From Candidatus Thorarchaeota archaeon (lineage in GTDB: Archaea; Asgardarchaeota; Thorarchaeia; Thorarchaeales; Thorarchaeaceae): 21,322 nt of DNA. The notes below the pieces were generated by a model. It saw nothing but the letters and a program-made list of their open reading frames with translations. It was not told the DNA's origin and did no database searches. The stretch lies in the NCBI GenBank assembly GCA_016840855.1, contig JAEORO010000189.1, positions 1-21,322 on the forward strand, written 5' to 3'. The first letter of the stretch is position 1. The number at the start of each line of letters is the position of its first letter. Of the stretch, positions 2,771 to 21,200 are shown in pieces. Both the position numbers and the translations under genes were made by a program.

Positions 2771-5700
2771 TTACCAAATATGCAATGGTTCTTCTTCCTC
2801 AATCATCAAGTCGTCAGTATCCGAAAAGTCGAACTTCATCCTTGAGAGAAGTTTCTTTATATCCTTGACTTCCACTTCTCTGGATTTATAGTCTAGCAGT
2901 ACTAATCGCAATTGATGTAGAGTTTTGCCAAGTTTCGGATTGAGTAATTCAGGAGCCTTTTGTCGAAGCTGCTCCCAAATATCTCGTGCCTCCTTCAGCG
3001 CTTGTTCAGCATCCGGTAATTTCTTGACTTTATGTTGTATAATTCCGAAGTTGTGAAGAGATGAAGCCAATCCTGCTTGGTACATTTCAGGTGATTGCTT
3101 GACGAGTCTTCTTCGAATTTCAATTGACTCTCTGAGTGACTCTTCTGCATCGGAATATTTGTTCATGTCTGCAAGGAGGATACCTTGGTTGTTAAGTGAG
3201 ATAGCTAGTATTGGTTCAAAGAACTGTGCCTCGATCTCAACAAATTGCTTCTGAATATCAACTGCTTCGGAGATTTGCGAATAAGCATCTTCAAGCATAC
3301 CCAATTCCCTGAGAAGCAATGAGTAATTGTTGCGCGTGAGTGTTGTATTATATTGAAACTTACTTGGGATCAGATGTATGATTTCTTCAAAGAGTCCCAA
3401 CGATTCTTGATAGAGTCGTCTTGCCTCTCGTAATTCTTCAAGCTTTCTGTGTGTGATGGCCAAATTACTCATAGAGAGAGCATAGTCATGTTTCGAATAA
3501 CTTGGTACAACATTTTGCTGTTTTTTAATTGTACTCAGAGCATCTTCAAGCAAATTCTTGGCCTTGAATGGTTTATCTACACATAGATAGAATGCGCCAA
3601 AATTATTCAATGCCTGTCCCAATAGGTATTCATTCCAAGAAGATTGATTTCTTTGGGCTTTAAGAAATTTAGTCGCTTCATTCATCTCTCTCTTTGCATC
3701 TACCAGTTTGAGGGTCCTTCTATAAAGAGCCAACGAAATTGTAGATATATTAATTGCCAGGAGTATTTTAGCCTGATATGGATATTCTTCTTTTTTGGCC
3801 TTTTCTCGGAGTAGACCTTCAGCTCTGCTGAGGACTGAGCTTGCTCTGGAGGTATCTCCACATATTATTAGAAACCGAGCATGGTTGAATAGTTGGTCAG
3901 CAAGATCCAGATCGTAGACTCTTAGTTCTTCTTGGTCAAGCTTTTCAAACATTTGTAGAGACTCATTTAGAACTGGCTCAACCTTACTAATCTGACCAGT
4001 ATAGCACAGAAATTCAGCGTACCAACGTAGAGCATTTGAAAGTCGCCATTCATACACATCATGATCTATATCATCGAGCTCTCTTCTCTCTTTGATAACC
4101 TCACGATACAATTCCTCTGCCTCAGTAATTCTTCCTAAAAACCATAAGTTCAGCGCCAAGTTCCCGCCTATTGCAGCTAGAACCGCTTTAAGACGGGCAT
4201 TATTTGGATCTTGGGTGCATAATTCTCGTTGGAGGTCCAATGCTTCTTGGTAACTCTTTACCCTCTGTGTGATATCTACTTGCATCGTAGCAAGGGTGTT
4301 CAATGCCCAAGGCAACTGGTCTTGATTTTTAGCCTGTCTATAAATTTCGACTGCTTCCTGTGCCAGCGGCAACGCCTCATCCTGTCGATTTAGAACATTG
4401 GCAAGATAAAACCCAAACCTGCAAAGCGTTTCCGCCAGATTCTCCAAGTTCCCTATTATGCTGGTACTTGTAAATTGTCTTTGAATGTCGATTGCATGAA
4501 TGAAACACTCTTCACCTTCCTCATACCTAGAAGTATTAAACAGCAAATCTCCCAAGACACTAAGGTAGATTCCAAGGCTAACACCATTATTTGGGAAATC
4601 TTTTGTGGCTAGCTCTTCGAAATTTCCTACTGCATCCCTAACTGCTGCTTCAGCTTCAGCATATCTGGTTTCAACATACAGAGCCCAACCTGACATTCCT
4701 TGATGTTCTGTTTTACCTTTTTTAGTCTTGAACGATAGATTCCTTAGGATTTCAAGAGCATCTTTGGTGGACTCTCTTCGTATGAGCTTAAAGATGATGT
4801 TCCTCGCTCTCTGGATTGCTTCTTCTTCTGAATATAGTGCTCTAACAGATAATGCCATTCCAAGTAGAGATGGATTATGTTCTTCCTCTGATTCCCTTGC
4901 AAGTAGACTAGAAACCTCCTCTCCTAAGAGAGTCAATTGCTTCCCTAGTTCCGCTCGCACTAAATCCTCTGCAAGATCGTGCAAAACAAAGGTTCCATCA
5001 CTACGTATCGTTACGAAACTCAGTCTTTTCAAGTGATCCCAACTATCAGGAGTCAGTTCCGGTGCAATTATGTGCATGATTTGTTCATCGAAATATGGAA
5101 CTAAGCCCGCGCGATTGATTAGATTGTGTAATCCTTTCGCTTCGCTGAATAATCTTCTCCATACTTTCAACCTAACCTCCGCAAGGGTATCTGCCCGTAA
5201 GTCTTCAATGTCTGATACATATAAATCACTAGTGTTGATCATGTCGCAAATAACGTCAAGGACAAATGGGTTGCCACCACTAACACTTACAATTCTCTCT
5301 TGGAGCTCCCTGTCAACAACTCCCTGAAGCTCAAGCATCTCGATGCAACTAGCTCTGTCAAATTCTGTAAGTTCTGTTTCTTCGATTTCGACTATTTTGT
5401 TCTTGGCTGCAGATCGCCTGCTTGCCATTACTCCGACACAGTGAGAAAGGTTAGAGAGAAAAATTGACCAGAGCTCAGTTTCGGTGATTCTTTTTCCGTC
5501 ATATTTCCACTGCGTTTTTTCATCATCAACATACTCAAAGTGATCTAAAAGAAGAAGGATGGGAATACTTGGATTCTCCCTGTTGTTGACATCCTCCAAT
5601 AATGCTTCTAAATACAAAAATTCAGCACGTCGCGGTTCTTTCCATAGAAATTGAAGAAGCTGCTCGACGTAATTCTTGCCTAACGTTTCCTGAAGCCATT

Positions 5701-6169
5701 TCCCGATTGTGCCATATTTCCCTTTTAACATGGGTGTGACCTTCGCACCAACTGCGTTGATTGCACTCCCAATACTGGCAAGTGACCCTATGAATGGAAT
5801 AGCCATGACAACCTCTTTTGCCCATTCACGTCCCTCTTCCTTTACCGGTTCCACTCCTTCCACGAAACGCTGTCGAATTTGCCAGAGTATGTCAAATCTC
5901 TGAAGCCTGACTCCTTGGAGCACAGCTCCTTTGGCAAGTATGTTAAGACGTTGATAAAACTCTGAATATTGTTCACAGTCCAGACGTATTGTCTTCTCGT
6001 GTGTGTTGACCCAGTGATTGAGCAAAGATGACTTACCAATCCCACCTATCCCTTTGAGGTGGAGCACGATGCTCTTCTTCTTGCATCTCTCAAGAGCTTT
6101 ATTCATCCACTCGATATGTTCTTCTCTGTCCACAAACACATCATCAGATGTTTGGTAGTGCTTGTACAC
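2771..6169 (-). CDS. STAND (NB-ARC/AAA_16-like) NTPase with C-terminal TPR repeats, paralog 1 (~1132 aa; start revised to GTG 6169)
   Basis: FVDREE, Walker A GIGGIGKSS, Walker B LLLLDHFE, sensor-like ASRR, GxP motif SGGNPF and MHD-like LHDLA, then ~42-aa TPRs (LAISLNNQG, LASSLHNFG). The GTG aligns with the start of paralog 3 and follows GTGAGG. Confidence 0.9.
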   Translation of the reverse strand: MYKHYQTSDDVFVDREEHIEWMNKALERCKKKSIVLHLKGIGGIGKSSLLNHWVNTHEKTIRLDCEQYSEFYQRLNILAKGAVLQGVRLQRFDILWQIRQRFVEGVEPVKEEGREWAKEVVMAIPFIGSLASIGSAINAVGAKVTPMLKGKYGTIGKWLQETLGKNYVEQLLQFLWKEPRRAEFLYLEALLEDVNNRENPSIPILLLLDHFEYVDDEKTQWKYDGKRITETELWSIFLSNLSHCVGVMASRRSAAKNKIVEIEETELTEFDRASCIEMLELQGVVDRELQERIVSVSGGNPFVLDVICDMINTSDLYVSDIEDLRADTLAEVRLKVWRRLFSEAKGLHNLINRAGLVPYFDEQIMHIIAPELTPDSWDHLKRLSFVTIRSDGTFVLHDLAEDLVRAELGKQLTLLGEEVSSLLARESEEEHNPSLLGMALSVRALYSEEEAIQRARNIIFKLIRRESTKDALEILRNLSFKTKKGKTEHQGMSGWALYVETRYAEAEAAVRDAVGNFEELATKDFPNNGVSLGIYLSVLGDLLFNTSRYEEGEECFIHAIDIQRQFTSTSIIGNLENLAETLCRFGFYLANVLNRQDEALPLAQEAVEIYRQAKNQDQLPWALNTLATMQVDITQRVKSYQEALDLQRELCTQDPNNARLKAVLAAIGGNLALNLWFLGRITEAEELYREVIKERRELDDIDHDVYEWRLSNALRWYAEFLCYTGQISKVEPVLNESLQMFEKLDQEELRVYDLDLADQLFNHARFLIICGDTSRASSVLSRAEGLLREKAKKEEYPYQAKILLAINISTISLALYRRTLKLVDAKREMNEATKFLKAQRNQSSWNEYLLGQALNNFGAFYLCVDKPFKAKNLLEDALSTIKKQQNVVPSYSKHDYALSMSNLAITHRKLEELREARRLYQESLGLFEEIIHLIPSKFQYNTTLTRNNYSLLLRELGMLEDAYSQISEAVDIQKQFVEIEAQFFEPILAISLNNQGILLADMNKYSDAEESLRESIEIRRRLVKQSPEMYQAGLASSLHNFGIIQHKVKKLPDAEQALKEARDIWEQLRQKAPELLNPKLGKTLHQLRLVLLDYKSREVEVKDIKKLLSRMKFDFSDTDDLMIEEEEPLHIW

Positions 6170-6190
6170 ACTACATGCCTCACAATGTGT

Positions 6191-6231
6191 GATAGGTAAC
6201 ATGAACAGAGGTCCAAGATAAGCTAGTCGGT
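6191..6231 (-). promoter_or_regulatory. Conserved ~41-bp upstream element, copy 1 (putative promoter of paralog 1)
   Basis: Ungapped hand alignment gives 34/41 identity to 9664-9704 and 32/41 to 12769-12809. The minus strand reads ACCGACTAGCTTATCT. Confidence 0.65.
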
Positions 6232-6234
6232 GGG

Positions 6235-9200
6235 TCACCAACTGAAAAGAGGTTCTTCTTCTTCAATCCATAGCTCAGCATCATCGGGAAAATCGAGATT
6301 CATGTCCCAGAGGCGTTTTTGTATAGCTTTGGCTTCGCTTTGCGTGCCATCATCTTCAAGAATAGTCAGTCTTAGTTGATGCAGTGTTTTCGCTAGCCTC
6401 GGGCTAAATAAATCCGGAGCCTTGGCTATCAGCTGATCCCAATTCTCAGCGGCCTCTCTGAACAACGCCTTGGCATCGCTTGATTTCCCAGTTTTCATTA
6501 GCAAGACTCCAAGATTGTAGAGAGATGCAGCCAATCCTGCCTGATGCATTTCAGGTGTTCGTGCAGCCAGCCTTCTTCTAAGCTGAATTGCCTCATTGAG
6601 TGATTCCTCTGCTTTAGGATGCGAATTCAATACAGAGAGGAGAATACCTTGGTTATTGAGGAAAATCGCCAGTATTGGCTCGTATAGAAAGGGCTCAATC
6701 TCAGCATACTCTCTCTCGATTTGAATTGCCTGTGAGAGTCTTACTTCTGCTTCATCGAACAAATCCATCTTCCTTAGAAGAACTGAGTAGTTGGACAATG
6801 TGACTGCAAGATTTTGCTGAAAAACCCTTGGTATCAAATGGGCTATTTCATCAAAGATAGAAAGGGCTTGCAAATAGAGTTCGTTTGCCTTCTTTAATTG
6901 ACCTTCTCTTTTACTCAGAATGGCAAGGTTGCAGAGAGAAACTGCAAATGTGTTCATTGAAATGACAAGCTGGAATTCTTTATGTTTTTCAATCAGACTA
7001 GAAGCTTTCTCAAGTATATTTCTGGTTCCAGATAGTTGATTTAGGTAGAGTTTCGATGCGCCAATGTTGTTCAGCACTATGCCTTCTCCTATTTCATAGA
7101 AATGTGAGGATCTTTCATATTGCTCAAATATCTCGGTTACATTGCTAATCAGCGACTCTGTCATCTCCACTCTAAAGGTCCGTGAGTATAACTGTAGCAC
7201 AGGACCAGCCAGCTCATATGCCAATGGTCTCATGGAATACGGCATTCTTCTGGCCTGTTTTTTGTAATCCTCACTGAATTGAATTGCTTTACTTATGACA
7301 GATTCAGCTTCAACAATTCTTTCCAACGCAACTAAGATGTAAGCCAAATCAAACATGTTCTGAGATGAACTATAAGTCCAACCCCCAGGTTCCTTCTTTT
7401 CTAACTCCTCATAGATTCTTGAGGCTTCACGATAGAATGGTTCAGCCTTTGAAACCTGACGAACTTGCCACAAGCGCCATCCATACCAATGTAGTGCTGC
7501 TGCATAACGCCCTCCATATATGTCCGGGTTTGCAGCATAAAGTTCTCTTCTTATATCTAGAGACTCGCGATTCAAATCTAATGCCTCATTGATGGCTCCT
7601 CTGACGTACAGTTCATTAGATAGATTGCCGCAAATTGCAGTAAAAACAGACTTGTAGCGGGTATTGGTTGGGTCTTGGGAAATCACCTCTCGTTGCTGAG
7701 CAATTGCTTTTCTAAATGTCAGTAACGCCTTATCGCGATTGCTGTTTCTTTGATGCATAATGCCAAGAATATTCAAGGCATACGGCAGCTCTCTTCGCTC
7801 ATTGGATTGCTCATAGATTTCGACAGCCTCTTGGGCAAGTGCTAGTCCCGCCTCCGGGCGATCTGCAAATGTACCCAGAAGAAGCGCAAACGACGAAAGC
7901 ACCTCTGCATCATCCTCCGAGCAACGGTCTGGGTTTTCAGCAGACAGTCTTCTAATAATCGCCAGCCCTTTTGTATAAGATACCTCAGCTTCTGCATATC
8001 TAGCGGTCTCTTTCATAACAGAGGCTAGGATTGCCAAGTAGAAGGCGACACTGCCACGATGTTTGGCAAAATCCTCCTTGGTCAAATTTTCAAAAGTATG
8101 TATCGCGTCCTTCAAGGTAGCCTCTGCCTCAGCATATCTGGTTTCAACCCTCAAAGCCCATCCTAGCATCCCCTGATGTTCCGCTCTGCCACTCTCAGTT
8201 CTTAATGATAGATTCCTCAAAATTTCAAGAGCGTCTTTGCCCGATTCCCTTCGTAAGAGCTTATGGATGATATTCTTTGCTTTCTGCATTGCTGCATCTT
8301 CTGAGAACACAGCTTCAACCGACAACGCCATTCCAAATAGGGATAGATCATGCTCTTCTTCTGATTCCCTTTCAAGCAGAGAAGAGACCTCCGAAACTAA
8401 GGGGCTTAGTTGCCTTCCTAATCCAGCTCGCACTAGATTCTCTGCAAGGTCATGTAACACGAAAGTTCCATCACTGCGCATCGCCACGAAACTCAGTCTT
8501 CTCAGACGGTCCCAACTATCGGGAGTCAATTCGGGTGCGATGATGTGTATTATTCGCTCGCTGAAATACGGAACTAAGCCTGCGCGATTGATTAGGCTCT
8601 GTAATCCCTCTGCTTCACTGAATAACCTCCTCCAGACCTTCAACCGAACCTCTGCAAGCGTGTCTGCTCGTAGATCTTCAATATCCGACTCAGATACCTC
8701 GCTTGCGTTGATCAAATCGCAGATAATATCAAGGACAAACGGGTTGCCACCGCTGACACTAACAATCTTCTCCTGGAGATTATTGTCAACCACACCTTGA
8801 AGTTCAAGCATTTCGATGCAACTATCTCTATCCAGTTCTGTGAGTTCACTTTCTTCAACATGGATTAACTTACTATCAGTCACTGGCCGTCTACTGGCTA
8901 ATACGCCAACACAATTCCTGAGGTTGGAGAGGAAGATGGTCCAGAGTTGTGTCTCGTTTATTTTCTGTCTTTGATATTTCCACTGAGCTTTTGTATCATC
9001 TACATACTCAAAATGGTCTAACAGAAAGAGAAGCGGGGTGTTTGAATCCGCTCGGCTGTTGATGTCCTCTAAGAACGCTTCCAGATAGAGAAACTCAGCA
9101 CGTCTTGGGTCTTTCCAAAGGATTTGAAGAAGTTCCTCAATGTGATTTTTGCCAAGGGTTTCCTGAAGCCACTTACCGATAGTACTATACTTGCCCTTCA

Positions 9201-9642
9201 GTTTCGGAGTGACCTTCGAACCGACCGCACTGATCGCACTCCCGATACTTGCTAGAGAACCGATGAAGGGGATTGCCATGACCACTTCTTTTGCCCACTC
9301 TCTTCCCTCTTCTCTGACGGGTTCTACTCCCTCAACAAATCTCTGGCGAATTTGCCAGAGGATGTCGAACCTTTGCAGCTTGACTCCCTGCAGGACAACT
9401 CCTTTGGTAAGCATGTTTAGACGATGGTAGAATTCTGAGTATTGCTCGCAATCAAGACGTATTGTCTTCTCATGTGTATTCATCCAGTGGTTCAGAAGTG
9501 ATGATTTACCAATTCCACCAATCCCCTTCAGGTGCAGTACAACACTCCTTTCTTTGCATCTGGCAAGAGCATCGTTCATCCATTCAATGTGTTCCTTTCT
9601 GTCCACGAATACATCATCGGATGTTTCGTAGTGCTTGTACAC
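6235..9642 (-). CDS. STAND NTPase-TPR protein, paralog 2 (~1135 aa; start revised to GTG 9642)
   Basis: Same motif series (GIGGIGKSS, LFLLDHFE, ASRR, SGGNPF, LHDLA) and TPR array, largely colinear with paralog 1. GTG-TAC-AAG-CAC start preceded by GTGAGG. Confidence 0.9.
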   Translation of the reverse strand: MYKHYETSDDVFVDRKEHIEWMNDALARCKERSVVLHLKGIGGIGKSSLLNHWMNTHEKTIRLDCEQYSEFYHRLNMLTKGVVLQGVKLQRFDILWQIRQRFVEGVEPVREEGREWAKEVVMAIPFIGSLASIGSAISAVGSKVTPKLKGKYSTIGKWLQETLGKNHIEELLQILWKDPRRAEFLYLEAFLEDINSRADSNTPLLFLLDHFEYVDDTKAQWKYQRQKINETQLWTIFLSNLRNCVGVLASRRPVTDSKLIHVEESELTELDRDSCIEMLELQGVVDNNLQEKIVSVSGGNPFVLDIICDLINASEVSESDIEDLRADTLAEVRLKVWRRLFSEAEGLQSLINRAGLVPYFSERIIHIIAPELTPDSWDRLRRLSFVAMRSDGTFVLHDLAENLVRAGLGRQLSPLVSEVSSLLERESEEEHDLSLFGMALSVEAVFSEDAAMQKAKNIIHKLLRRESGKDALEILRNLSLRTESGRAEHQGMLGWALRVETRYAEAEATLKDAIHTFENLTKEDFAKHRGSVAFYLAILASVMKETARYAEAEVSYTKGLAIIRRLSAENPDRCSEDDAEVLSSFALLLGTFADRPEAGLALAQEAVEIYEQSNERRELPYALNILGIMHQRNSNRDKALLTFRKAIAQQREVISQDPTNTRYKSVFTAICGNLSNELYVRGAINEALDLNRESLDIRRELYAANPDIYGGRYAAALHWYGWRLWQVRQVSKAEPFYREASRIYEELEKKEPGGWTYSSSQNMFDLAYILVALERIVEAESVISKAIQFSEDYKKQARRMPYSMRPLAYELAGPVLQLYSRTFRVEMTESLISNVTEIFEQYERSSHFYEIGEGIVLNNIGASKLYLNQLSGTRNILEKASSLIEKHKEFQLVISMNTFAVSLCNLAILSKREGQLKKANELYLQALSIFDEIAHLIPRVFQQNLAVTLSNYSVLLRKMDLFDEAEVRLSQAIQIEREYAEIEPFLYEPILAIFLNNQGILLSVLNSHPKAEESLNEAIQLRRRLAARTPEMHQAGLAASLYNLGVLLMKTGKSSDAKALFREAAENWDQLIAKAPDLFSPRLAKTLHQLRLTILEDDGTQSEAKAIQKRLWDMNLDFPDDAELWIEEEEPLFSW

Positions 9643-9663
9643 GCTACACGCCTCACTATATGT

Positions 9664-9704
9664 GATGGATGAAATAAACAGAGGTCTTAGATAAGCTAGT
9701 CGGT
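9664..9704 (-). promoter_or_regulatory. Conserved ~41-bp upstream element, copy 2 (putative promoter of paralog 2)
   Basis: The + strand reads GATGGATGAAATAAACAGAGGTCTTAGATAAGCTAGTCGGT, at the same distance from the GTG start as copy 1. Confidence 0.65.
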
Positions 9705-9712
9705 TGTTATCA

Positions 9713-12700
9713 CTAGAAGTCAAGAAGAACTTCTTCAATCTCTTCTGGGTTCTCAACCGTAAATCTGTCTTTGACGACTCGTGGTTCTTTCTTTACCAAT
9801 ACATCCTTGATCTTAGCTACTTCACTTGCAGTAATCTTAGCCTCTTCTTTGTATCCAGATTGACTGTACACTATGCTTAGATTTGTTAGTACAGCTGCTA
9901 AGCTTGGGAGAAACATCACTTCTGTCTTTTCAGCCAATTTTCTTAACAGCTTAAGTGAATCCTTGAGATACTTCATACTCTTGGTTAGATTTTTTTTGTC
10001 GAGGAACACGATGCCAAGATTGTTCAGAGTCCAGGCGAGATGTTTGTCGAACATATCTGGGGAAACCTTGACCAGCTTCTTCCTGATATCTAGACTCTCA
10101 TTCAGTAACTTCTCAGCTTCTTCCAACTTGCCCATCTTTCCAAGAAGAACACCATAATTGTTGAGAACCGAACCGACACGGTTTTGAACTTCGACATCTT
10201 CGGGATTGCTTTTACACAGATCCCTAGAAATTTGGAGTGACTCGATGTATCTCTCTGCTGCATTCTTCATTTTCCCTGTTTTCTGTAATAACAATGCATA
10301 GTTGTTCAGACAATCAGCTATATTGGAACCATGATGTCCTGGAGAAGTTTCCATTAAGTTTCTGAATATCTTCAGAGAGGTATCGTGGGAATCTACAGCT
10401 TGTGAAAATCTGTTCAATTCTGTGTTGAGGACGCCCAAATGAGCGTGAGTGAGGGCTAGAATGAGATCTTCCTCTACAGTGTATTCTTTTGCGAGTTCAA
10501 GAGCTTTGTTGAACATTTCCTCAGCGTCTGCATATCTGCATGTCTGTATTAATAATGTTCCAAGTGTCAGAGATTTCTCAACGATAGCTTCCCATTCTAC
10601 TGCTGGTTCTTTTTGGTATAGGACCATTGTTATCTCTAAAGACCTACGCAAATACTCCTCTGCATCATAAGGTCTATTGGTCTTCCGAAGGGCACGACAC
10701 AGATGTCCAAAAATCGTTCCTCTGAATACGGGGTCCAATTGCTGAAAAGTAGGTGATTCAACAATTTGCCTTGTTATCAATTCTGCATCCAATGGTTTTC
10801 CTATTGATATCCGTATAGCTGCCAAGCTGGAGAGAATTAGATTTGTTGCAGATTGTCTACTCCACCAAAAACCTGACTCTGGTATTTCCTTGCTAAATTC
10901 ATACGATTCTAGCAACATTTTCTCTGCTTCTATTAGTCGGTTTGTATTCATTAGAAACATACCATAGTTCAGACGAACTCCCCAAGCCCCAAGAGTTCGT
11001 GGTAGCTCAAGTCTTGGATCTAGTAAATCTGATTTTCCTAATAAGTCATTGAAGGTAGAGAGACTTTCTTTGTAAGACTCATCAGCTTCTCGCCATCTTC
11101 CTAGTCTCATATAGAACTGTGCTATGTGATATAAGATTCTACCCACATAAAGCAAGTAATCACCAGGTCGTTTGCTAGCAAGTTCTCGCGCAGTAGCAAG
11201 AGCTTCCTGCAGCATGGGTTCACACTCAGCAAACCTGCCAAGTTGAAACAGACAATATCCCCGCCAGTCTTGAATTGCCAAGGTTCCTTCACTCGTGTTT
11301 ATCCTAAGTACCTCCAGCATCTCAAGGAACTCTGTAACAGTTGCACTTGCTCCTGTCGCGATCTGGACTTGGAATTCAAGAGCAACTTTATCAATCGCAT
11401 TTCGAGGACTTGCTCTTGCAAGAGAAGAAATAGCTAAACCTAGCAAAATCAGGTCAGATCTGTCCTTTGAAGCCTTCTCCAATCTGGCCGCGACTTCTTC
11501 ACTTAGTACTTCAAGTCGGTCACTAAGCTCTGCAATAACCAACTCCTCAGCTAAGTCATGCAGAACATAGGTTTCATCTCCAATATTTCTGACAAAGCTG
11601 AGTCGAGTCAATCTGTCCCATTGTTCAGCTTTAATGTCTGGTGCAATAATGTTCATTTCAAGTCTGCTGAAGAATGGTAAAAGTCCAGCGCGATCAATGA
11701 ACGGTGTCAGATCATGTGCCTCATTGAAAAGACGACGCCAAGTTCTGATTCGGACTTCTTCGAGTGTATCTGCTCCGAGATCTTCAATGTCTTCGAACGA
11801 TGTATTTCCTGTGTCGATTAAGTCACAGATAGCACCAATCACAAATGGATTTCCACCGCTCACACTCACTATCTTTTCTTGAAGCTTTGAATCAGATATT
11901 TTTCTTAACCTCAGCAACTCATTGCTACTCTCTGCATTCAATTCGAGCAGCTCAGATTCTTCCACTTGGTCTTTCATTTTCGCGATTACAGCTCGTCTAC
12001 TAGCCATCACCCCAACAGAGTTAGATAACGAACAAAGAAAGACACTCCAGAGTTCCGTTTCTGTAATCTGTTTGCCACCATACCTCCACTTTGCTTTCTC
12101 ATTGTCAACATATTCAAAGCTGTCCAGAAGAAATAGAAGCGGAACATTCATACTACTTCTGAGATTGATATCTTCGAGTAACGCATCGAGATACAAGAAC
12201 TCTGCATGGTGGGGTTCTTTCCACAGAATCTCGAGAAGTCTTTCAACATGATTCTTTCCTAATCTTTCCTGTAACCATTTTCCAACAGTGCTAAACTTGC
12301 CTTTCAGTTTTGGAGTGACCTGAGAACCGACTGCTGAAATTGCACTTCCAATGCTGGTCAAAGTGCCAATGAATGGAATTGCCATGAATACTTCCTTTGC
12401 CCATTGGCGACCTGCTTCCTGAACAGGTTCAACTCCTTCAACGAAACGTTGTCTAATCTGCCAGAGGACATCAAAACGTTGGAGTTTCACACCTTGGAGT
12501 GTCAAGCCTTTAGCTATTATGTTCAATCGATCATAGAACTCAGAATGTTGCTCGCAGTCTACTCGGATTGTTGATTGAATTGTATTTGCCCAATGGTCAA
12601 GCAATGAAGATTTACCAATTCCACCAATCCCTTTGAGATGTAGTACAACACTTTTGCTTTGGCATCGCGCTAGAGCTTGATCCATCCAATTGAGATATTC

Positions 12701-12748
12701 TTCACGATTTACAAAGATTCGTTCAGATGGCTCAAAGTGATCGTACAC
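9713..12748 (-). CDS. STAND NTPase-TPR protein, paralog 3 (1011 aa, more divergent, shorter TPR region)
   Basis: FVNREE, GIGGIGKSS, LFLLDSFE, ASRR, SGGNPF and LHDLA, plus TPRs (CLNNYA, VLNNYG, TLNNLG). GTG start with GAGGT SD-like motif; an in-frame TAA five codons upstream fixes the start. Confidence 0.9.
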   Translation of the reverse strand: MYDHFEPSERIFVNREEYLNWMDQALARCQSKSVVLHLKGIGGIGKSSLLDHWANTIQSTIRVDCEQHSEFYDRLNIIAKGLTLQGVKLQRFDVLWQIRQRFVEGVEPVQEAGRQWAKEVFMAIPFIGTLTSIGSAISAVGSQVTPKLKGKFSTVGKWLQERLGKNHVERLLEILWKEPHHAEFLYLDALLEDINLRSSMNVPLLFLLDSFEYVDNEKAKWRYGGKQITETELWSVFLCSLSNSVGVMASRRAVIAKMKDQVEESELLELNAESSNELLRLRKISDSKLQEKIVSVSGGNPFVIGAICDLIDTGNTSFEDIEDLGADTLEEVRIRTWRRLFNEAHDLTPFIDRAGLLPFFSRLEMNIIAPDIKAEQWDRLTRLSFVRNIGDETYVLHDLAEELVIAELSDRLEVLSEEVAARLEKASKDRSDLILLGLAISSLARASPRNAIDKVALEFQVQIATGASATVTEFLEMLEVLRINTSEGTLAIQDWRGYCLFQLGRFAECEPMLQEALATARELASKRPGDYLLYVGRILYHIAQFYMRLGRWREADESYKESLSTFNDLLGKSDLLDPRLELPRTLGAWGVRLNYGMFLMNTNRLIEAEKMLLESYEFSKEIPESGFWWSRQSATNLILSSLAAIRISIGKPLDAELITRQIVESPTFQQLDPVFRGTIFGHLCRALRKTNRPYDAEEYLRRSLEITMVLYQKEPAVEWEAIVEKSLTLGTLLIQTCRYADAEEMFNKALELAKEYTVEEDLILALTHAHLGVLNTELNRFSQAVDSHDTSLKIFRNLMETSPGHHGSNIADCLNNYALLLQKTGKMKNAAERYIESLQISRDLCKSNPEDVEVQNRVGSVLNNYGVLLGKMGKLEEAEKLLNESLDIRKKLVKVSPDMFDKHLAWTLNNLGIVFLDKKNLTKSMKYLKDSLKLLRKLAEKTEVMFLPSLAAVLTNLSIVYSQSGYKEEAKITASEVAKIKDVLVKKEPRVVKDRFTVENPEEIEEVLLDF

Positions 12749-12768
12749 ACTGTTGACCTCTTACACGC

Positions 12769-12809
12769 GATAAGTGACATAAATAAAGGTCTTAGATAAG
12801 GTCGTCGGT
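12769..12809 (-). promoter_or_regulatory. Conserved ~41-bp upstream element, copy 3 (putative promoter of paralog 3)
   Basis: The + strand reads GATAAGTGACATAAATAAAGGTCTTAGATAAGGTCGTCGGT. It lies in clearly intergenic DNA between divergent genes. Confidence 0.65.
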
Positions 12810-12942
12810 TTTTTGACACGTAAGCAACCTACATCTAGTATTGAAACAATTCGATTATCGGCTACATGAATTGATAGATTTTTAAAGAATTTATGTATAT
12901 AGTGACGCTAGGTATTGCCCTGCGTGAAGGGAGGATGCGATA

Positions 12943-14223: not shown

Positions 14224-15270
14224 GTGAAAAAGCTCGTGCCTGATGAAACCCGCAGCTCTCTTTTCGATAAGAGTGAAAGCGAAAAGGCTTTCGATGCAGG
14301 GAATGTCATCATGAATTATACTAGGGGCGTTCTTCAACACCAGAGGATGAATCTGGATGAAGCAATCAAACTGCTTGAAGAGGCTCTCAATTTAGCTGTT
14401 GAAGGCGATATGTTTGACTATGTCATCAAGTCACAAGTCCAACTTGCATCGGTTCATTTGAAAAGATACCAGATTCATGGCGAGGAAAATGACTATAAAA
14501 CTGCTCTAAACTATTCTGAAAATCTCGCTCAAATTGCAGAGGAACAAAACCTTGCTCCTGGGATTGTTGAATCATTACTACTTCGAGCCATCCTAAAAAG
14601 AACAGCAAAAGATCTAGTTGGAGCAAAACACGATTTATTGAGAGCAAAAGCTTTAGCTCTTGACAATAAACTCGCCACTGTTGTGAAGGTGATTAACCGC
14701 GAGATTGTGGAGCTTCAAAAGCTAGAGAAACCTAACCTCAAATGGGATATTGATTATTCAGAAGAAACGGATTTAGAAGAAAGCTTGGAAGAGATACCTG
14801 GAGTATTTGCTAGACTCATGGAAATGGAGCTCTCACGAAAGCCAATATTGGTACCAGTGAAACTTTATCGACTTGTTGTTATGAAGCCAAAGGACGGTCT
14901 TCCTGTATTCGCGTATGACTTCGATGCTGAATTACAGATGGCAGATTTCTTAGTTTATGGGCTTCTATCCGCAGTAACTTCAGTTGGACTTGAGATTTTT
15001 CCAGATGCTGGTCAGATTAGATCTTTATCTCACGAGGGAAAGACAATCATCATGGAACATGAAGGAGAATATATGGGTGCACTGATTGCAGAGAAAGAAA
15101 ATTTCAGAGCAAGAATTTCCCTTAACAATTTTCTCAAAGGGTTTATCGAGATTGTTCCACCCGAAAAGTGGCATGGAGAGGTTCTCAATAAAGAAGTTAA
15201 GCAAGAAGCAAATTTTCTAGTCGTCAAAACTTTTCGAGACCTTATCCTGCCTGCACCTGAAAGTGATTAG
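14224..15270 (+). CDS. TPR-like helical repeats fused to a C-terminal longin-like domain
   Basis: N-terminal TPR-like helix pairs (RGVLQHQRMNLDEAIKLLEEA; RAILKRTAKDLVGAKHDLLRA). The C-terminal beta-beta-alpha-beta-beta-beta-alpha pattern runs LYRLVVM..DGLPVFAYDF..LVYGLLSAVTSVGLEIF..IRSLSHEGKTIIME..ALIA..LNNFLKGF..WHG, resembling Asgard longin domains. Confidence 0.7.
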   Translation: MKKLVPDETRSSLFDKSESEKAFDAGNVIMNYTRGVLQHQRMNLDEAIKLLEEALNLAVEGDMFDYVIKSQVQLASVHLKRYQIHGEENDYKTALNYSENLAQIAEEQNLAPGIVESLLLRAILKRTAKDLVGAKHDLLRAKALALDNKLATVVKVINREIVELQKLEKPNLKWDIDYSEETDLEESLEEIPGVFARLMEMELSRKPILVPVKLYRLVVMKPKDGLPVFAYDFDAELQMADFLVYGLLSAVTSVGLEIFPDAGQIRSLSHEGKTIIMEHEGEYMGALIAEKENFRARISLNNFLKGFIEIVPPEKWHGEVLNKEVKQEANFLVVKTFRDLILPAPESD

Positions 15271-15272
15271 AA

Positions 15273-18200
15273 TTATCGACGAACCAATTCTTTTTCAATT
15301 GCATCAAGGACTTCATCAACGCGCTCAAGAAGCATTTCTTTTAGTCGTCGACCTGCTGGTTCTGTTGGAGCTTCCATTTCAAATGCTCGAGTGTACATCT
15401 GCTTAGCTTTAATCAGCTCTTCATTCAAAACTTGAAGAACATCTGTACCTGTAAATGGAATCTCCTCAGACACTTCTCGTAACCACTCAAGCTGCGAAAC
15501 CATTTGTTCTCTCATCGTTGAAGAAATACCTACTTCCTCAAGTGAGAGCAGCTCTTCAGGTGTGAGTGCATGTTCAAGTTTTGTGACCCGTTTTCTTGTT
15601 CTTGCGATAAATAAAACAACAGCAATACCAGCGATTCCAGCTAGGCCAAGGTATAGGACCTCTCTTGGGATTGGTGGACTAGACCAGTAGACACTAGGCA
15701 CTCTGTTTCTGTGGTCGACCTTCGTTAGTCCAAATTGATCTTCAAACACGTCGATTTCATAGCTCACGGGACCAACTTCTAATCCCTCAAATGATGCCTC
15801 CCATCTTTGGGTTTCGGCATTGAATAAGGCTTGTTTTCCATTAATTTGGACTATGGTGGTTGGATCATCGATATATGTTTCATCCGATTCATAGCGTAGT
15901 TGGAAGTATACTGTGATGGTGTTCCCTACAGTTGCATTGAAAATAGCTGGGGCAATTGCATCTCTCTCTGAATTGCTAACTCCAGCTAACCAGACATAGA
16001 CACTGTCAAATATGACAGTTACAATGAAATCATCATTTGCATGTAGAACATTAACAGCTGTTGTCTGATCTACTATCACGTCAACTTGGTAATCAAACGA
16101 ACCAGCTTCATTGTAGGATACTGAGATAAGCCAAGATTGATTGACCATATCATAGGTGGCTTCAATCCCATTAATCCATAGTCTACCATTCGTATTAGTG
16201 TATGGTACTTTGTCGTAAGAATATCTCACTTTGAATTTTACTTGAACTGATGAGCCTAGATCGTAGCGCTTAAGGTTTCTGTCACTCCAATAGACCTCAA
16301 ACTCATCCCAAATTATGATTTCTTCATCATTGCTTAGGACATATTTGATACCATATGCTCCAACTTCGATGAACTCTTCAAGAACCGTGTATGCGCGCAT
16401 TCCGACAGAAGATTGAACAAAGTCAATATAATTCAGCGGAAGTGTTCCATTGAATTTGGCTCCATCGTAAGCATAGACTGCGGATTTTTGGATAAAAACT
16501 GGACTACCAATATTTATTCGATTGTGATCCGCAGTTAGAGTAATAATGAGTGCATCCCAAATCACACTCGTTTCATTATTTAGAAGAATGACTGAAATTC
16601 CGTAGACATCACCAAAAGCTGATAACACTGTATATCCTCTACGACCAACTGTAGAGTAGTTTAAGATTGTATTATTGAATGACAATATGCCAACATACGT
16701 TTCATTATCATAGATATATTGAGCATCAACATGAAGTTCAGCTTCATCAAATAAATTGATTCTATCATCTTCAGCCCACATATTCCGTATTGCTATAGCA
16801 TCCCATATCATTGACGGATTCTCTGCAGGTTCTTCAAAAAGCATGACTCCATTTGCATCTACTCCCGTTACTACCCACGACCTGAAATCAATATCTGAAC
16901 TTGAATCAGTGATTACTACCCATCCTGTTTCATTAATTAAATATGGTTCAGAATTCACATAGAGAAATCCATATTCGACATCACTCGAATTCTCCAACCA
17001 TGTACAATGGAAATAGATTGAAATCACTGTCCCAATGTTAACACGTCCATTGACATATCCATCATCGCTAGTAAACGCAAGATTGACCTTTACTATCGGC
17101 GCATCAGTCCAGAACACCTCAATCATCTGAGTATCGAATTCTGTAATACCAAATACACCATCTGTAGCATCAATAACGAGATATTGCTGGTGAACATCTC
17201 CAGGTCCATTCCATATATCAGTGAAATTGTTCATGAAAAGGAATGTACCATTTCTCAGAGTTTCAACAGTCAATGTGCTGGCTCTGCTATTATCGTATTG
17301 ACGTGTTGCAGTAACTGTGAAACTCACTGTATCTCCAAAATGAGCTATTGAGGTATTGGCTTCAATTACAACATTCAACTTGTCCCAGATTATGAATTTG
17401 GGACTGACCTCCTCTATAATCACAGTCAATCCATATATCAGATCTGTGATCTCTGATACCTGAAAGACGTACCCTACAGGATTACTGAATGAATAGCTGC
17501 GATACCAGTACTTATTTCCGGGATCCCAAGTCATTGCTGATCCATTAATATAGACGACACAACCAATTACAATTGGCTGAAAGGCAACTGAGTCATATTC
17601 ATAATCTACCTCAACGTATACATTCTGAGTGTCGCCAACATTAATACGGCTGTCATCCATGTCAATTGAGTACGAAACTATTCGCAACCTGTCCCATATC
17701 ACATAGTCCTCATCGTTGGAACCAATCAACGATATTCCGTAGGAGTCACCAGATGCTGAAATGACAGTGAAATTCCAACGACCAACATCGTTATGCATGA
17801 CGATAGTGTCATTAAGTGTCAGAATCCCATCAAAAAGCTGACCATCGTAGTCATAAGTTGCACTTACAACAATCGAAGCAGCCGTTCCAACATCTATACG
17901 CCTATCATCGACTGTTATTGTTACTGAAATCATGTCCCAGATTACATGCTGGGACTTAGAGTTTTGATTCACCTCTTGAATTTCATAGAAATTACCGGCA
18001 CACGAAACTGTATCAAATGTGATATCTATAACAGACAATTCTGTTCTATTGTGTCTCCAAAAACCAGAACCAAGATGTTGAAAGGCGAATCCATTGATAG
18101 TCACTGTACCATCAATAAGTGGTTTGTAATCATACGCATACTCCAAACTGACAACCACCCAGATATAGTCACCAACATTATCGCGTGCATCACTTGCTTG

Positions 18201-21200
18201 ATATGAAAGAACAATGATCTGGTCCCATATGCACCAAGTTTCAGAGTTTGTCAGAATATAGGTAATACCGTGGGTATCATCACCGAGGGCGTTTAGAATT
18301 GTGTAACCCTTCTTAGTTGCGGTTGCTGATACGAAGGAGGTGTCGTTCAGAGTGAGTGTTCCATCATAGGGTAAATCATCATAATCATACCATGCACTAA
18401 TGACAATACCTGATGCATTCTGATTTACATTAATTCTCTGATCTATAGGGTCTGTCATTGAAATTATAATGGCATCCCAAATGCAGAAGGTTTCATCATC
18501 GACAGAAATTGCAGTTATCTCATAGGTTCCTCCCGAAACACTCTGAAGTCCATAAGCTATTCTCTGAGTCACTCCAGATACAAACTGTGTATTGTTTAGA
18601 GTTAACACACCATCGAAAGGTGTACTGTCATAATCATATACTGCTGATACAACAATACCTGATGCATTAGTACCAATGTTGATTCTTTGATCAAAGGGAT
18701 CGGTTATTGAGATTGTCAAAGAATCCCAGATGCAGTATGTTTCTGCGTTTTGTGAAATAGTAGTGATGCCAAAAGAATCATCCCCAAGTGCAAATAACAC
18801 TCTGTATCCCTGTTTCTGTGCAAAATCATAGCTGAAGACTGTGTTGTTCAGAACGAGTGTACCATCGTAAGTAGCACTGTCGAAGTCATATGTTGCAGAA
18901 ACAACAATTCCTGATGCATTCTCAAAGATGTTTATTCTGTTGTCAGTCGGACCAGTTATTGTGATTGTTAGACTATCCCAGATAATATTCTGAAACTGAC
19001 TATTCTGGTCAACTTGGGTGAGACCGTGTGTTCCTCCATTGTAGGTCACGGCATTATAGATGACTTCTTGCACTAAAGACTTGGTAACTGTGATGCGCCA
19101 GACTCCTGTACCAATATGACTGGCTGTAACAGAGTTGACTGTAACCGTTCCATCTAAGACTGGACCTGAGTCATAAGCGTAAGTGAGTATTAAATCGAGA
19201 TTTACATCATCATTGATATTGACCCTAGAGTCATCAGGTGAATACGATTGCACCAAGATTCTATCAGCGATATAGTTGTTCTGGCTTGATACTGAGAGAA
19301 GATCTTGACCCACACTGTTTGCTCCTTCCTCAACAGCTTTGATTGTTAAGGTATCCTGGCCTACTTCATCATCGGCAAAAACTATCAAGCTAAATTGTCC
19401 GGAAACTAATGTTAGATCACTCCAAGGACCTACATTAAACCCGTATTCGGAGCTAATCACCCAAACATCAGTTTCATTTGAGAGAGGATTATCATTCCCA
19501 GACCCGAGGTAAATCAGTATACCACTCACTGAAATACTTCCATCAAGGTCTCCTCTGTTATTTGTTCCAAATCCATCAGAAATAGTTAGGTTGGTTATTT
19601 CTAGACGCGTTTCAACATCCCAGTTTGTTTCATAGAAATCTTCGTCTGTATCAATCCCATCAGTTACAAATTGTCTGATGTCTGTGTCTGATAGATCTAG
19701 GTGGTCCCATGTAATCTTGATAGCCCATTTTATTTCAAGTCGATTCCCAACTCCTATAGCTAACGACCACGGAGCGAGAATGATGGAATCCGGACCTTGT
19801 TGGATTGAGAATGTATCAGTTGCCACGGTATATCTAATTGTCCAAACAACCTGACTCCTGAAGTTGTCGTATAATGAAACCTCCACGTATTCGATTTGAT
19901 CATAGCCATTTCCATCGCTTGCATTGGTGGATAAAACATAAAATCTGTACATCGCGTACATGTTGTCAGAATCATCAGGATTACTAAGCATAGATAGAAA
20001 ATCTGTATCATTTGAAGGGACTTGATTAGGTGCCTCCGACCAAGTAACTTTTTGAGTTGTTGTGAAAAAGGCTGTTATTCCGTATAGCGTTTCATAACTG
20101 ATTAGACTAGCATTATAGTAATAGACTACATTTGAATTGATGTCATTAAATAGGGTCTTATTAGAATTAGTGAACGCATGCCAGATTGTAGAGTTTCGGG
20201 ATATAATCACTTCATAGGTCGTACAGATTATAGAATCGTAATCATACTTGACAGTGAGTGTGAAGTTTGCTTGTTGCCCATTATATAGTGATGCACCATC
20301 AACTGTGATACTAATTCTAAGCTGGTCCCAAATACAAAATGTATCGTCATCAGTTGATATTGCTGTAATTCCATAAATGTCATCTCCGCTAGCTATCAAA
20401 ACTTCATATCCACGTTTGCCAACCGTTGTCTGGATGAACTGAGTATTATTCAAGACCAATGTACCATCATACGGCATTCCATCGTAATCGTAAGTGGCAC
20501 TTACTACAATCCCACTAGCATTCTCACCTATGTTTATTCTCTGGTCAAATGGGTCTGTAATGGTAATAGTAAGGGAGTCCCATATGCAATATGTTTCTGC
20601 ATTTTGTCGTATGGCTGTTATTCCATAGGAATCATCTCCAGATGCAAATAACACCTTGTATCCCTGTTTCTGTGCAGAACTATATGTAAAGACTGTATTA
20701 TTCAGAACTAGAGAACCATCATAGAGAGTATTATCAAAGTCATAAGTCGCACTCACAATAATTCCAGAAGCATTAGCATTTACATCGATTCGTTGATCTG
20801 AAGGACCTGTTATCAGGATTGTAAGACTGTCCCAGATGCAGTATACCTCATCATTGATTTCGATTGCAGTAATTCCGTAACTGTCATCTCCAAGTGCTGA
20901 GTCTACTGTGTACCAGTGTTGCTGTGCGACAGCATAAGTGAATACAGTATCGTTTAGAACAACAGTGCCATCATATGTTGCTCCATCATAGAGATATATA
21001 GCCTCTGGGTTAACAGACGCTGCGTCTCCTATGTTTACTCTGTTATCTGCGACTGTGATTGAAATAGATAAAGCATCCCAGATTATTGAAGGTCCAGAAG
21101 GTGTGTTGATTGCGTTTATTCCATACTGTGTATCAGTGATAGCATTCACTCTAAATGTCAGTCTTCTGACTAGGGACGATGTTCTAAGTTGTGTCCACAC

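Follow-up and report, generated by a model that had tools for sequence, protein, structure and literature searches.

Conserved switches and variable sensors in three tandem STAND NTPase-TPR paralogs of a Thorarchaeota genome: silent sites, selective constraint, and module exchange

How adjacent genes come to encode closely similar nucleotide-dependent switches and strongly different sensors is the question raised by a three-gene array in a Thorarchaeota (Asgard) genome. The window analyzed here is the complete stretch of 21,322 nucleotides from Candidatus Thorarchaeota archaeon (assembly GCA_016840855.1, contig JAEORO010000189.1, positions 1 to 21,322). Its three paralogs (p1, p2, and p3) are arranged head to tail on the minus strand and encode STAND NTPases with a sensor of tetratricopeptide repeats (TPRs). 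The p1 gene (2771..6169, open reading frame 2771-6241) has a called GTG start at 6169 and encodes 1132 amino acids plus stop, comprising a STAND nucleotide-binding oligomerization domain (NOD), 14 TPR-like repeats, and an acidic tail with tryptophan (acidic-Trp tail). The p2 gene (6235..9642, open reading frame 6235-9756, called start 9642; 1135 amino acids plus stop) has the same long sensor type as p1, while p3 (9713-12748, called start 12748; 1011 amino acids plus stop) has a sensor of a different clade. All called starts are those in public protein collections. A preliminary description of the locus had ascribed the steep divergence between p1 and p2 to diversifying selection on ligand-binding TPRs and/or gene conversion homogenizing the NTPase, as in immune receptors. 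The results below made another explanation probable, in which the gradient reflects differential purifying selection in old tandem paralogs, with renewal of sensors mainly by module exchange.

The NODs occupy residues 1-440 of each protein and are encoded on the minus strand at 4850..6169 (p1, with nucleotide-binding domain [NBD], helical domain, and winged helix), 8323..9642 (p2), and 11429..12748 (p3). The p1 sensor (2840..4723, minus strand; residues 483-1110) was modeled as 14 helix pairs with pLDDT mostly above 90. Identity between p1 and p2 was 0.80 over residues 1-300 and again over residues 301-440, 0.68 over 441-520, 0.31 over 521-900, and 0.49 over 901-1132, and a U-shaped conservation profile was also seen over 102 family members. 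The near-identity of the first 100 residues was confirmed, with a count of 86/100 from the called start and 82/100 from the upstream in-frame start instead of the 87 previously given. Translation also confirmed the central low-identity blocks (p1: 3863..4162, minus strand, residues 670-769, repeats 5-7; p2: 7327..7626, minus strand, residues 673-772), which shared 34 of 100 residues in an ungapped comparison and contained a 10-residue run (RVYDLDLADQ vs. GGWTYSSSQN) without a single shared residue. The two blocks are judged homologous, as chance would give far less than 34% identity over this length of 100 residues. The reported return of similarity in the last TPRs corresponded to the rise from 0.31 to 0.49. 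Similarly, p3 was indeed shorter, by 121-124 amino acids, a deficit described as three TPRs that consisted mainly of about two 42-residue repeats. These additional repeats of long-type sensors (3500..3769, minus strand; p1 residues ~801-890) were missing in p3 and in about 90% of members (p1 residues 801-880 aligned with gaps in 90% of the 102), and loops and the C-terminal tail made up the rest of the p3 shortfall.

Ratios of non-synonymous to synonymous substitution rates (dN/dS, omega) were used to investigate selection on switch and sensor. The sliding-window dN/dS check proposed in the preliminary description could be answered only in part: among p1, p2, and p3, dS was saturated or undefined nearly everywhere, so that these omegas were discarded as unreliable, while closer relatives gave values below 1. 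Omega was therefore estimated against the closest relatives with available DNA and unsaturated dS, namely L024 for p1 (76% identical overall) and L045 for p3. In NOD windows of the p1-p2 pair, dN was 0.055-0.25 (0.06-0.09 over residues 30-210) and dS was saturated or undefined in most windows, with omega at 0.02-0.10 where dS could be estimated. The NODs of p1 and L024 gave a dN of 0.05-0.11 and an omega of 0.02-0.08, with two 100-codon windows lacking a dS estimate. Sensor values were higher but still below 1: the p1-L024 sensor showed a dN of 0.186, a dS of 0.586, and an omega of 0.32, and sensor windows of p3 and L045 gave omegas of 0.11-0.31. These results indicated that the approximately 80-90% protein identity of the p1 and p2 NODs is due to purifying selection.

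To locate the variable sensor residues, repeats were placed in the canonical TPR register from the helices of the model. Conservation in the p1-type clade was seen at structural positions 4, 8, 11, 20, 26, and 27, while variability was highest at positions -2, 2, 5, 9, 12, and 13 of helix A and at positions 17, 21-23, 25, and 29 of helix B. The variable helix-A positions are predicted to form an exposed stripe facing the groove, and contacts with helix-A positions -1, 2, 5, 6, 9, and 12 in a modeled complex of sensor and tail (described below) independently mark the groove and provide a check on the register. Mapping on the TPR superhelix thus showed variation at exposed positions of both faces and not in the groove alone. 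For p1 and L024, omega was 0.39 (interval 0.25-0.55) at exposed, groove-facing positions of helix A, 0.42 (0.31-0.55) at exposed, outward-facing positions of helix B, and 0.24-0.26 in the cores. Divided along the sensor, groove omega was 0.39 (0.22-0.62) in repeats 1-7 and 0.25 (0.11-0.43) in repeats 8-14, against 0.33 outside the groove. None of the classes exceeded 0.42, and upper bounds were at most 0.62 for classes of sensor positions and reached 0.77 for the 22-codon tail class.

Diversifying selection on the sensor TPRs was not supported by these values, since groove omega was no higher than that of the outer face and all classes were well below 1; variation on both faces combined with omega well below 1 is the pattern that the preliminary description had itself named as speaking against such selection. 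An arms race, in which binding of viral or other foreign ligands by the central TPRs placed groove residues under positive selection and so separated p1 from p2, would fit the groove-facing stripe in the model and the patchy presence of the family in its genus (17 of 28 genomes, with a deletion remnant in G002). It would also fit the dN between p1 and p2 in the groove of repeats 1-7, which at 0.75 (0.52-1.25) was above the non-groove value of 0.50 (0.42-0.61) and hints at divergence in specificity. This explanation is nevertheless considered unlikely, because helix-B exposed positions were as variable as those of helix A, the p1-L024 groove did not exceed the outward-facing positions in omega, p3 and a 92%-identical relative differed at 28 of 440 NOD residues and 50 of 571 sensor residues, and copies of the same gene from other assemblies differed at 0-4 residues. 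In addition, internally homogenized repeats were absent, as Tandem Repeats Finder (TRF) detected only three trivial arrays of 20-37 nt over 2771-12748.

While recombination tests revealed no breakpoint between p1 and p2, a different kind of recombination was found, in which lineages exchange sensor halves or entire genes. The ranking of relatives reversed along p1: its NOD core (residues 1-300) had 85% identity to the core of L007, which carries an unrelated sensor (12-17%), and only 72% identity to the core of L005, which carries a sensor 40-52% identical to that of p1. Consistent with this reversal, 'quick' IQ-TREE runs on 35 full-length members yielded conflicting trees. In the NOD tree, p1, L024, p2, and L025_1525 (the counterpart of p2 by position in a sister species) formed a clade (support 99), joined next by L007 and L031 (100), with L005 and L006 elsewhere. 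In the sensor tree, p2, the pair of p1 and L024, and the pair of L005 and L006 formed a clade (100), while L025_1525 grouped with L011 and L037 (100). An approximately unbiased (AU) test on the NOD data rejected the sensor clade (delta lnL 97.4, p=0.00017). Furthermore, silent-site similarity between p1 and L024 jumped at the NOD-sensor junction of p1 (4700..4850, minus strand), with a best breakpoint at residue 451 (0.49 to the left, 0.70 to the right, permutation p=0.002). A significant silent-site breakpoint occurred in two of eight pairs with similar sensors (p1-L024 and L056-L045), the other six being uniform. Among the family members compared, no donor of the p1 or L024 NOD was found that was close at silent sites (best four-fold identity 0.47).

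Comparison with the flanking chromosome provided a reference for these ages. L024 and L045 matched two contigs of genome G042 at 99.7 and 99.8% identity. This genome represents a congeneric species in which the slot and gene order are as in the window. Five flanking genes were saturated at silent sites between the window and this species, with identical residues encoded by the same codon at frequencies of 0.40-0.49 and dS of at least 2.5: PFK (same-codon 120/262, dS 2.6), the PRC-barrel gene (42/100, dS saturated), the gene for a 348-amino-acid hypothetical protein (137/278, dS 2.5), that for a giant DUF7738 protein (109/238, dS 2.5), and the ABC permease gene (100/252, dS saturated). The p1 NOD was at the level of these flanks when compared with L024 (146/303, p=0.39). 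In contrast, the p1 sensor (287/406, p=3e-13) and the whole of p3 compared with L045 (508/728, p=4e-22) were far less diverged than the flanks, and nucleotide identity stepped from approximately 0.70 in the flank to approximately 0.84 at the start of p3. Codon bias was ruled out as a cause of the 0.70 values, because same-codon identity within the family reached a plateau of approximately 0.47 in the p1-p2 comparison. The NOD of the middle gene, p2, shared 85% protein identity with that of L025_1525 at saturated silent sites, and the two sensors belong to different clades. Set against the saturated flanks, the three array genes indicated that, in this species pair, sensor histories are uncoupled from the chromosome. 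From these sequence comparisons, it is concluded that sensor halves or entire genes are exchanged laterally among lineages, including between species.

Plain relaxation of constraint, by which NOD and sensor would share a single vertical history and the sensor would merely evolve faster, accounts for an omega below 1 everywhere and for the six similar-sensor pairs with uniform silent-site similarity along the gene. It is regarded as very unlikely in view of the AU rejection of a common topology, the NOD/sensor rank reversal, the p1-L024 breakpoint, and the presence of a young p3 gene inside saturated flanks.

Homogenization of the p1 and p2 NTPases by gene conversion would be expected to leave silent sites more similar in this half than in the sensor half. 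Instead, p1 and p2 used the same codon at the same residue in 139 of 287 cases (0.48) over residues 30-400 and in 108 of 229 cases (0.47) over residues 500-1100, and four-fold sites agreed at 53/119 (0.45) in the NOD and 44/90 (0.49) in the sensor, for a saturation expectation of 0.27. A max-chi-square scan of the pair detected no breakpoint (permutation p=0.70), and the NOD DNA, 76% identical, contained no long identical tract (longest run 17 nt, permutation mean 21.4, p=0.95). The equal divergence of silent sites in both halves indicated that p1 and p2 are equally old along their whole length, and homogenization of the NTPase by gene conversion was therefore not supported. A separate observation concerned p2 and p3, which shared a 23-nt identical run at P-loop codons ~40-47 (near 9500-9525 and 12605-12630; p=0.0085, one of three pairs tested); this run could be a tiny, old conversion tract or reflect constraint on P-loop codons. 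Concerted evolution, in which conversion between tandem neighbors keeps NTPase halves alike while sensors diverge freely, could draw on this run, on the 52-nt upstream element common to all three genes, and on the NOD tree, which united p1 and p2 with their sister-species neighbors even though L025_1525 bears a sensor of another clade, but is highly improbable because the p1 and p2 NODs were as diverged at silent sites as their sensors and as flanking genes between species, shared no long identical tract, and were only 67-69% identical to the p3 NOD, and because three tandem neighbors in genome G009 fell in three different NOD clades. Recent conversion is largely refuted by these results, and conversion that predates silent-site saturation is beyond their reach.

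Several points weigh against differential constraint combined with module exchange as the explanation of the gradient. The omegas are averages over classes of 42-203 codons from single pairs, which would hide a small number of positively selected sites, and groove dN between p1 and p2 was higher in repeats 1-7, with overlapping intervals. Saturation of dS between p1 and p2 makes their initial divergence unreadable, so that old conversion or an early adaptive burst would leave no trace here. The argument from young segments relies on one sister species and assumes that dS is comparable between genes. The clade used in the AU test was named after the identity table had been inspected, the trees came from 'quick' runs, and the sensor alignment is poor across sensor types. 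Only two of the eight similar-sensor pairs showed a significant breakpoint, and because the pairs were picked for their similar sensors, the apparent relative age of the two halves is biased. Finally, the tail-groove model described below was built from two pieces of one chain, for which proximity of residues 1101-1110 is trivial.

The switch half of p1-p3 is a STAND NOD, which was not assigned to a subclade. In Pfam searches, AAA_16 was above cut-off in p2 only and below it in p1 and p3, NB-ARC (17.6 vs. a cut-off of 23.5) and ATPase_2 remained below cut-off, and many TPR_10 and TPR_12 matches followed the NTPase part of all three proteins. TPR_MalT scored 32.1 bits in p2 and 28.3 bits in p3 (cut-off 45), and the best NCBIfam match, FxSxx_TPR, reached 69 bits, far below its cut-off of 300. 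An AlphaFold2 model of p1 from a 102-row alignment (pLDDT 89.4, pTM 0.72) consisted of the NOD up to approximately residue 440, arm helices at 411-477, the 14 helix pairs at 483-1110, and a coil tail at pLDDT 79-93. Foldseek searches with the full-length model returned mostly unrelated TPR proteins, together with the archaeal STAND-TPR structure 6mfv and Avs3. A NOD-only model (pLDDT 86.3) gave 51 matches at E≤0.001, among them CED-4, Apaf-1, PH0952 (6mfv), PAB2304, Cdc6/ORC, NRC2, Avs3, MalT, Roq1, and ZAR1 (E 6.5e-7 to ~4e-4); their TM-scores were low (0.23-0.35) because domain orientations differ. Searched by sequence against solved structures, the NOD had no match below E 0.3.

Conserved residues were in line with this assignment. 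Across 102 members, G40, G42, G43, G45, K46, and S47 of Walker A (GxxxxGK[ST]; residues 40-48) and the aspartate D209 of Walker B (hhhhD) were invariant, and the strand order in the models fits a P-loop NTPase. In the Gly-Gly-Asn-Pro-Phe motif at 298-302, G299, N300, P301, and F302 were likewise invariant, and His397-Asp398 in the winged helix was at least 90% conserved. Typical of STAND proteins are a Gly-x-Pro motif of the helical domain and a winged-helix His(-Asp) that contacts ADP. Walker A starts at residue 40, and no fused effector domain was found: Pfam matches were confined to NTPase and TPR families and the models contained no further domain. The NBD of p1 contains a helical insert (5570..5917, minus strand; residues ~85-200, between strand 2 and Walker B, with model helices at 90-195), of which residues 81-160 formed the most conserved stretch of the family, with a major-residue frequency of 0.85-0.89 over 102 members, above that of the P-loop region. 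The insert also contains a Gly/Ser/Ala-rich hydrophobic helix. A hidden transmembrane segment in this helix was considered and rejected: its 19-residue Kyte-Doolittle mean of 1.63-1.83 was the highest in p1 and p2, but TPR helices reached 1.52-1.75.

Searches for homologs identified 243 proteins at E≤1e-3 among 7,999 scored, and source names among the 120 proteins listed were Candidatus Thorarchaeota/Promethearchaeota, plus single labels of Sifarchaeia and Bathyarchaeota. Worldwide, the switch module is uncommon, with 175 matches at E≤1e-3 and 74 at E≤1e-30 among 1.84 billion cluster representatives, and the ESM Atlas yielded only generic AAA_16, NPHP3_N, and MalT-WHD STAND clusters. Together, these data define a small, Thorarchaeota-centered family of effector-less STAND NTPases with a NOD, a TPR sensor, and a short acidic-Trp tail. 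PADLOC assigned no Avs or NLR model to p1-p3, which matched only weak TPR models (p3) and pPIWI_RE_Z (p1, E 0.0084), and a literature search, which did not cover supplementary tables, found no paper describing this Asgard STAND-TPR family.

The C-terminal tail of p1 (2774..2839, minus strand; residues 1111-1132) is an acidic run with a final tryptophan that is conserved in the p1/p2 type, and an acidic-Trp consensus was visible family-wide. A two-chain model of residues 441-1100 and 1101-1132 reached a score of 0.83, while the best of three controls scored 0.00. Three runs shared at least 97% of contacts with a partner pLDDT of at least 77, and the mark applied was one reached by 58 of 80 solved complexes and by 2 of 110 mismatched pairs. 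In the model, tail residues 1121-1132 contact helix-A groove positions of repeats spanning 810-1043, and the tail of p1 is thereby placed within the concave groove that repeats 6-14 form. If real, occupation of the groove by the protein's own conserved tail would probably account for the stronger conservation of the last repeats relative to those in the middle. PH0952 and MalT are autoinhibited by NOD-sensor contacts, as described in the part of PMC6468293 consulted, and in line with this the predicted complex suggests that the tail may act as an autoinhibitory pseudo-ligand.

Under differential constraint with module exchange, the NOD would tolerate almost no amino acid change (omega 0.02-0.1) and the sensor approximately five to ten times more (0.2-0.5). 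New sensor repertoires would arise mainly by exchange of modules rather than by arms races of point mutations, with whole genes or sensor halves replaced via recombination near the NOD-sensor junction, including by transfer between species. Each paralog may be a ligand-gated ATP switch with its own specificity, which would be held off at rest by NOD-sensor and tail-groove contacts and would oligomerize upon ligand binding; ligand binding, ATPase activity, and oligomerization are predictions. A more far-reaching proposal, which is considered unlikely, is that the genes form an Asgard-specific repertoire of effector-less receptors in which sensor cassettes are swapped laterally onto a vertically inherited switch, with the tail as pseudo-ligand and the NBD insert as output surface. 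The true ligand would then displace the tail, and oligomerization would expose or cluster the insert, which might recruit a partner or act on a membrane. Neither a role in immunity nor one in regulation is favored.

Each gene is preceded by a conserved, promoter-like element of approximately 52 nt on the minus strand, at 6184..6235 for p1, 9657..9708 for p2, and 12762..12813 for p3. The three copies were 77-79% identical. Among 43 family members drawn from many genomes, at least 80% retained the core, approximately 60 nt 5' of the start codon. Downstream of the element, a purine-rich, Shine-Dalgarno-like stretch directly precedes the GTG. Judged by sequence, the element and this stretch look like a family-specific promoter (TATA/BRE-like) and a ribosome-binding site, and the presence of the shared element before each paralog means that the genes are probably transcribed as separate units and controlled in common. 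Antisense open frames on the plus strand (8237-8800 and 11922-12251) over the NOD-coding parts of p2 and p3 recurred in 16 related loci and are most simply explained as a by-product of strongly conserved coding sequence on the opposite strand.

The neighbors of the array in the window are PFK, DinB, a PRC-barrel protein, an ABC permease, a hypothetical protein, and a giant DUF7738 protein. None of these six proteins matched PADLOC, so that the neighborhood gave no indication of a defense island. The giant protein (15273-21254, minus strand; 1993 residues) had a weak DUF7738 match as its sole Pfam match, and the hypothetical protein (14224-15270, plus strand; 348 residues) had none. These two proteins, neighbors in five loci, appear to belong to the stable flank rather than to the array. 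Among 28 genomes of the genus, 17 (counting that of the window) contained one to three NOD matches each at E≤1e-60. Over 38 loci, some of them redundant, the recurring flanks were PRC-barrel (10), PFK (6), DinB (6), ABC permease (6), the 348-residue protein (5), and the giant protein (5). The slot holds one to three genes of differing types, and only short remnants in G002, another species of this genus. There, on contig C7 (L068, ~43369-44050), three short pieces beside the PRC-barrel gene were 50-80% identical to p1 residues 15-181 and 1087-1156, and from their sequence, one piece containing a stop, they are judged to be the deletion remnant of a family member. For the PRC-barrel gene only, genomes G005 (L061) and G009 (L054) were closer to the window's genome (dS 1.1-1.3) than G042 (saturated); the arrays of G005 and G009 share fewer gene types with the window than that of G042 does.

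Like PH0952 of Pyrococcus horikoshii (6mfv) and MalT of Escherichia coli (8bob), p1-p3 combine a NOD, an arm, and a C-terminal TPR sensor, and both structures were retrieved with the NOD model (E 6.4e-6 and 1.1e-4, respectively), 6mfv also with the full model. Unlike them, p1-p3 have no DNA-binding or other output domain, possess the NBD insert of approximately 115 residues and a tail predicted to fill its own groove, match solved chains by sequence no better than E 0.3, and score below the TPR_MalT cut-off. The best structural matches of the NOD were Apaf-1, CED-4, and plant NB-ARC NLRs (E 6.5e-7 to ~1e-4), with which the proteins share the conserved His-Asp and Gly-x-Pro motifs. They differ from these in having a TPR sensor instead of WD40 or LRR, in the absence of CARD, CC, or TIR domains, in sub-cut-off NB-ARC scores, and in TM-scores of 0.23-0.31. 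In fungal NLRs, hypervariable WD40, ANK, or TPR repeats are nearly identical, reshuffle internally, and are under positive selection at surface positions. Those receptors and p1-p3 have in common that the NOD is conserved and the repeat domain variable, that paralogs have expanded, and that domains are shuffled, whereas the repeats of p1-p3 are old and dissimilar, with omega below 1. The resemblance to immune receptors noted in the preliminary description holds for the architecture, a conserved STAND switch with a variable TPR sensor that evolves in modules.

Approximately 90 defense-associated prokaryotic STAND families, in which some sensor types span many NTPase clades, are described in the excerpt of PMC13581612 used here. 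As in these antiviral STANDs (Avs), to the extent covered by that excerpt, p1-p3 join a STAND NTPase to a mostly TPR-like sensor and sensors are shuffled between NTPase clades; unlike Avs, they lack an effector domain and a PADLOC Avs match and lie among housekeeping genes. In the portion of PMC11291487 consulted, the Asgard NLRs treated are of the NACHT type only, and in that of a 2020 bioRxiv preprint on Asgard diversity, TPR is mentioned only as a promiscuous domain. As far as these partial sources and the present sequences go, the less ordinary finding is that an effector-less Asgard STAND family renews its sensors laterally at a fixed slot, TPR-sensor STANDs and cross-clade sensors being already known (PMC13581612).

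A conserved switch with a variable sensor is often read as the mark of an arms race. In this array, silent sites separated the possible causes and pointed to ordinary differential constraint, and they gave sensor halves, as well as one entire gene, a much younger age than the surrounding chromosome. Young sensors and a young gene inside old flanks indicate that the family renews its specificities by exchange of cassettes between species at a fixed slot. If the proposed receptor repertoire were real, the archaea most closely related to eukaryotes would possess an NLR-like system of novel design for immunity or surveillance. The family is tractable for asking what STAND switches did in these archaea.

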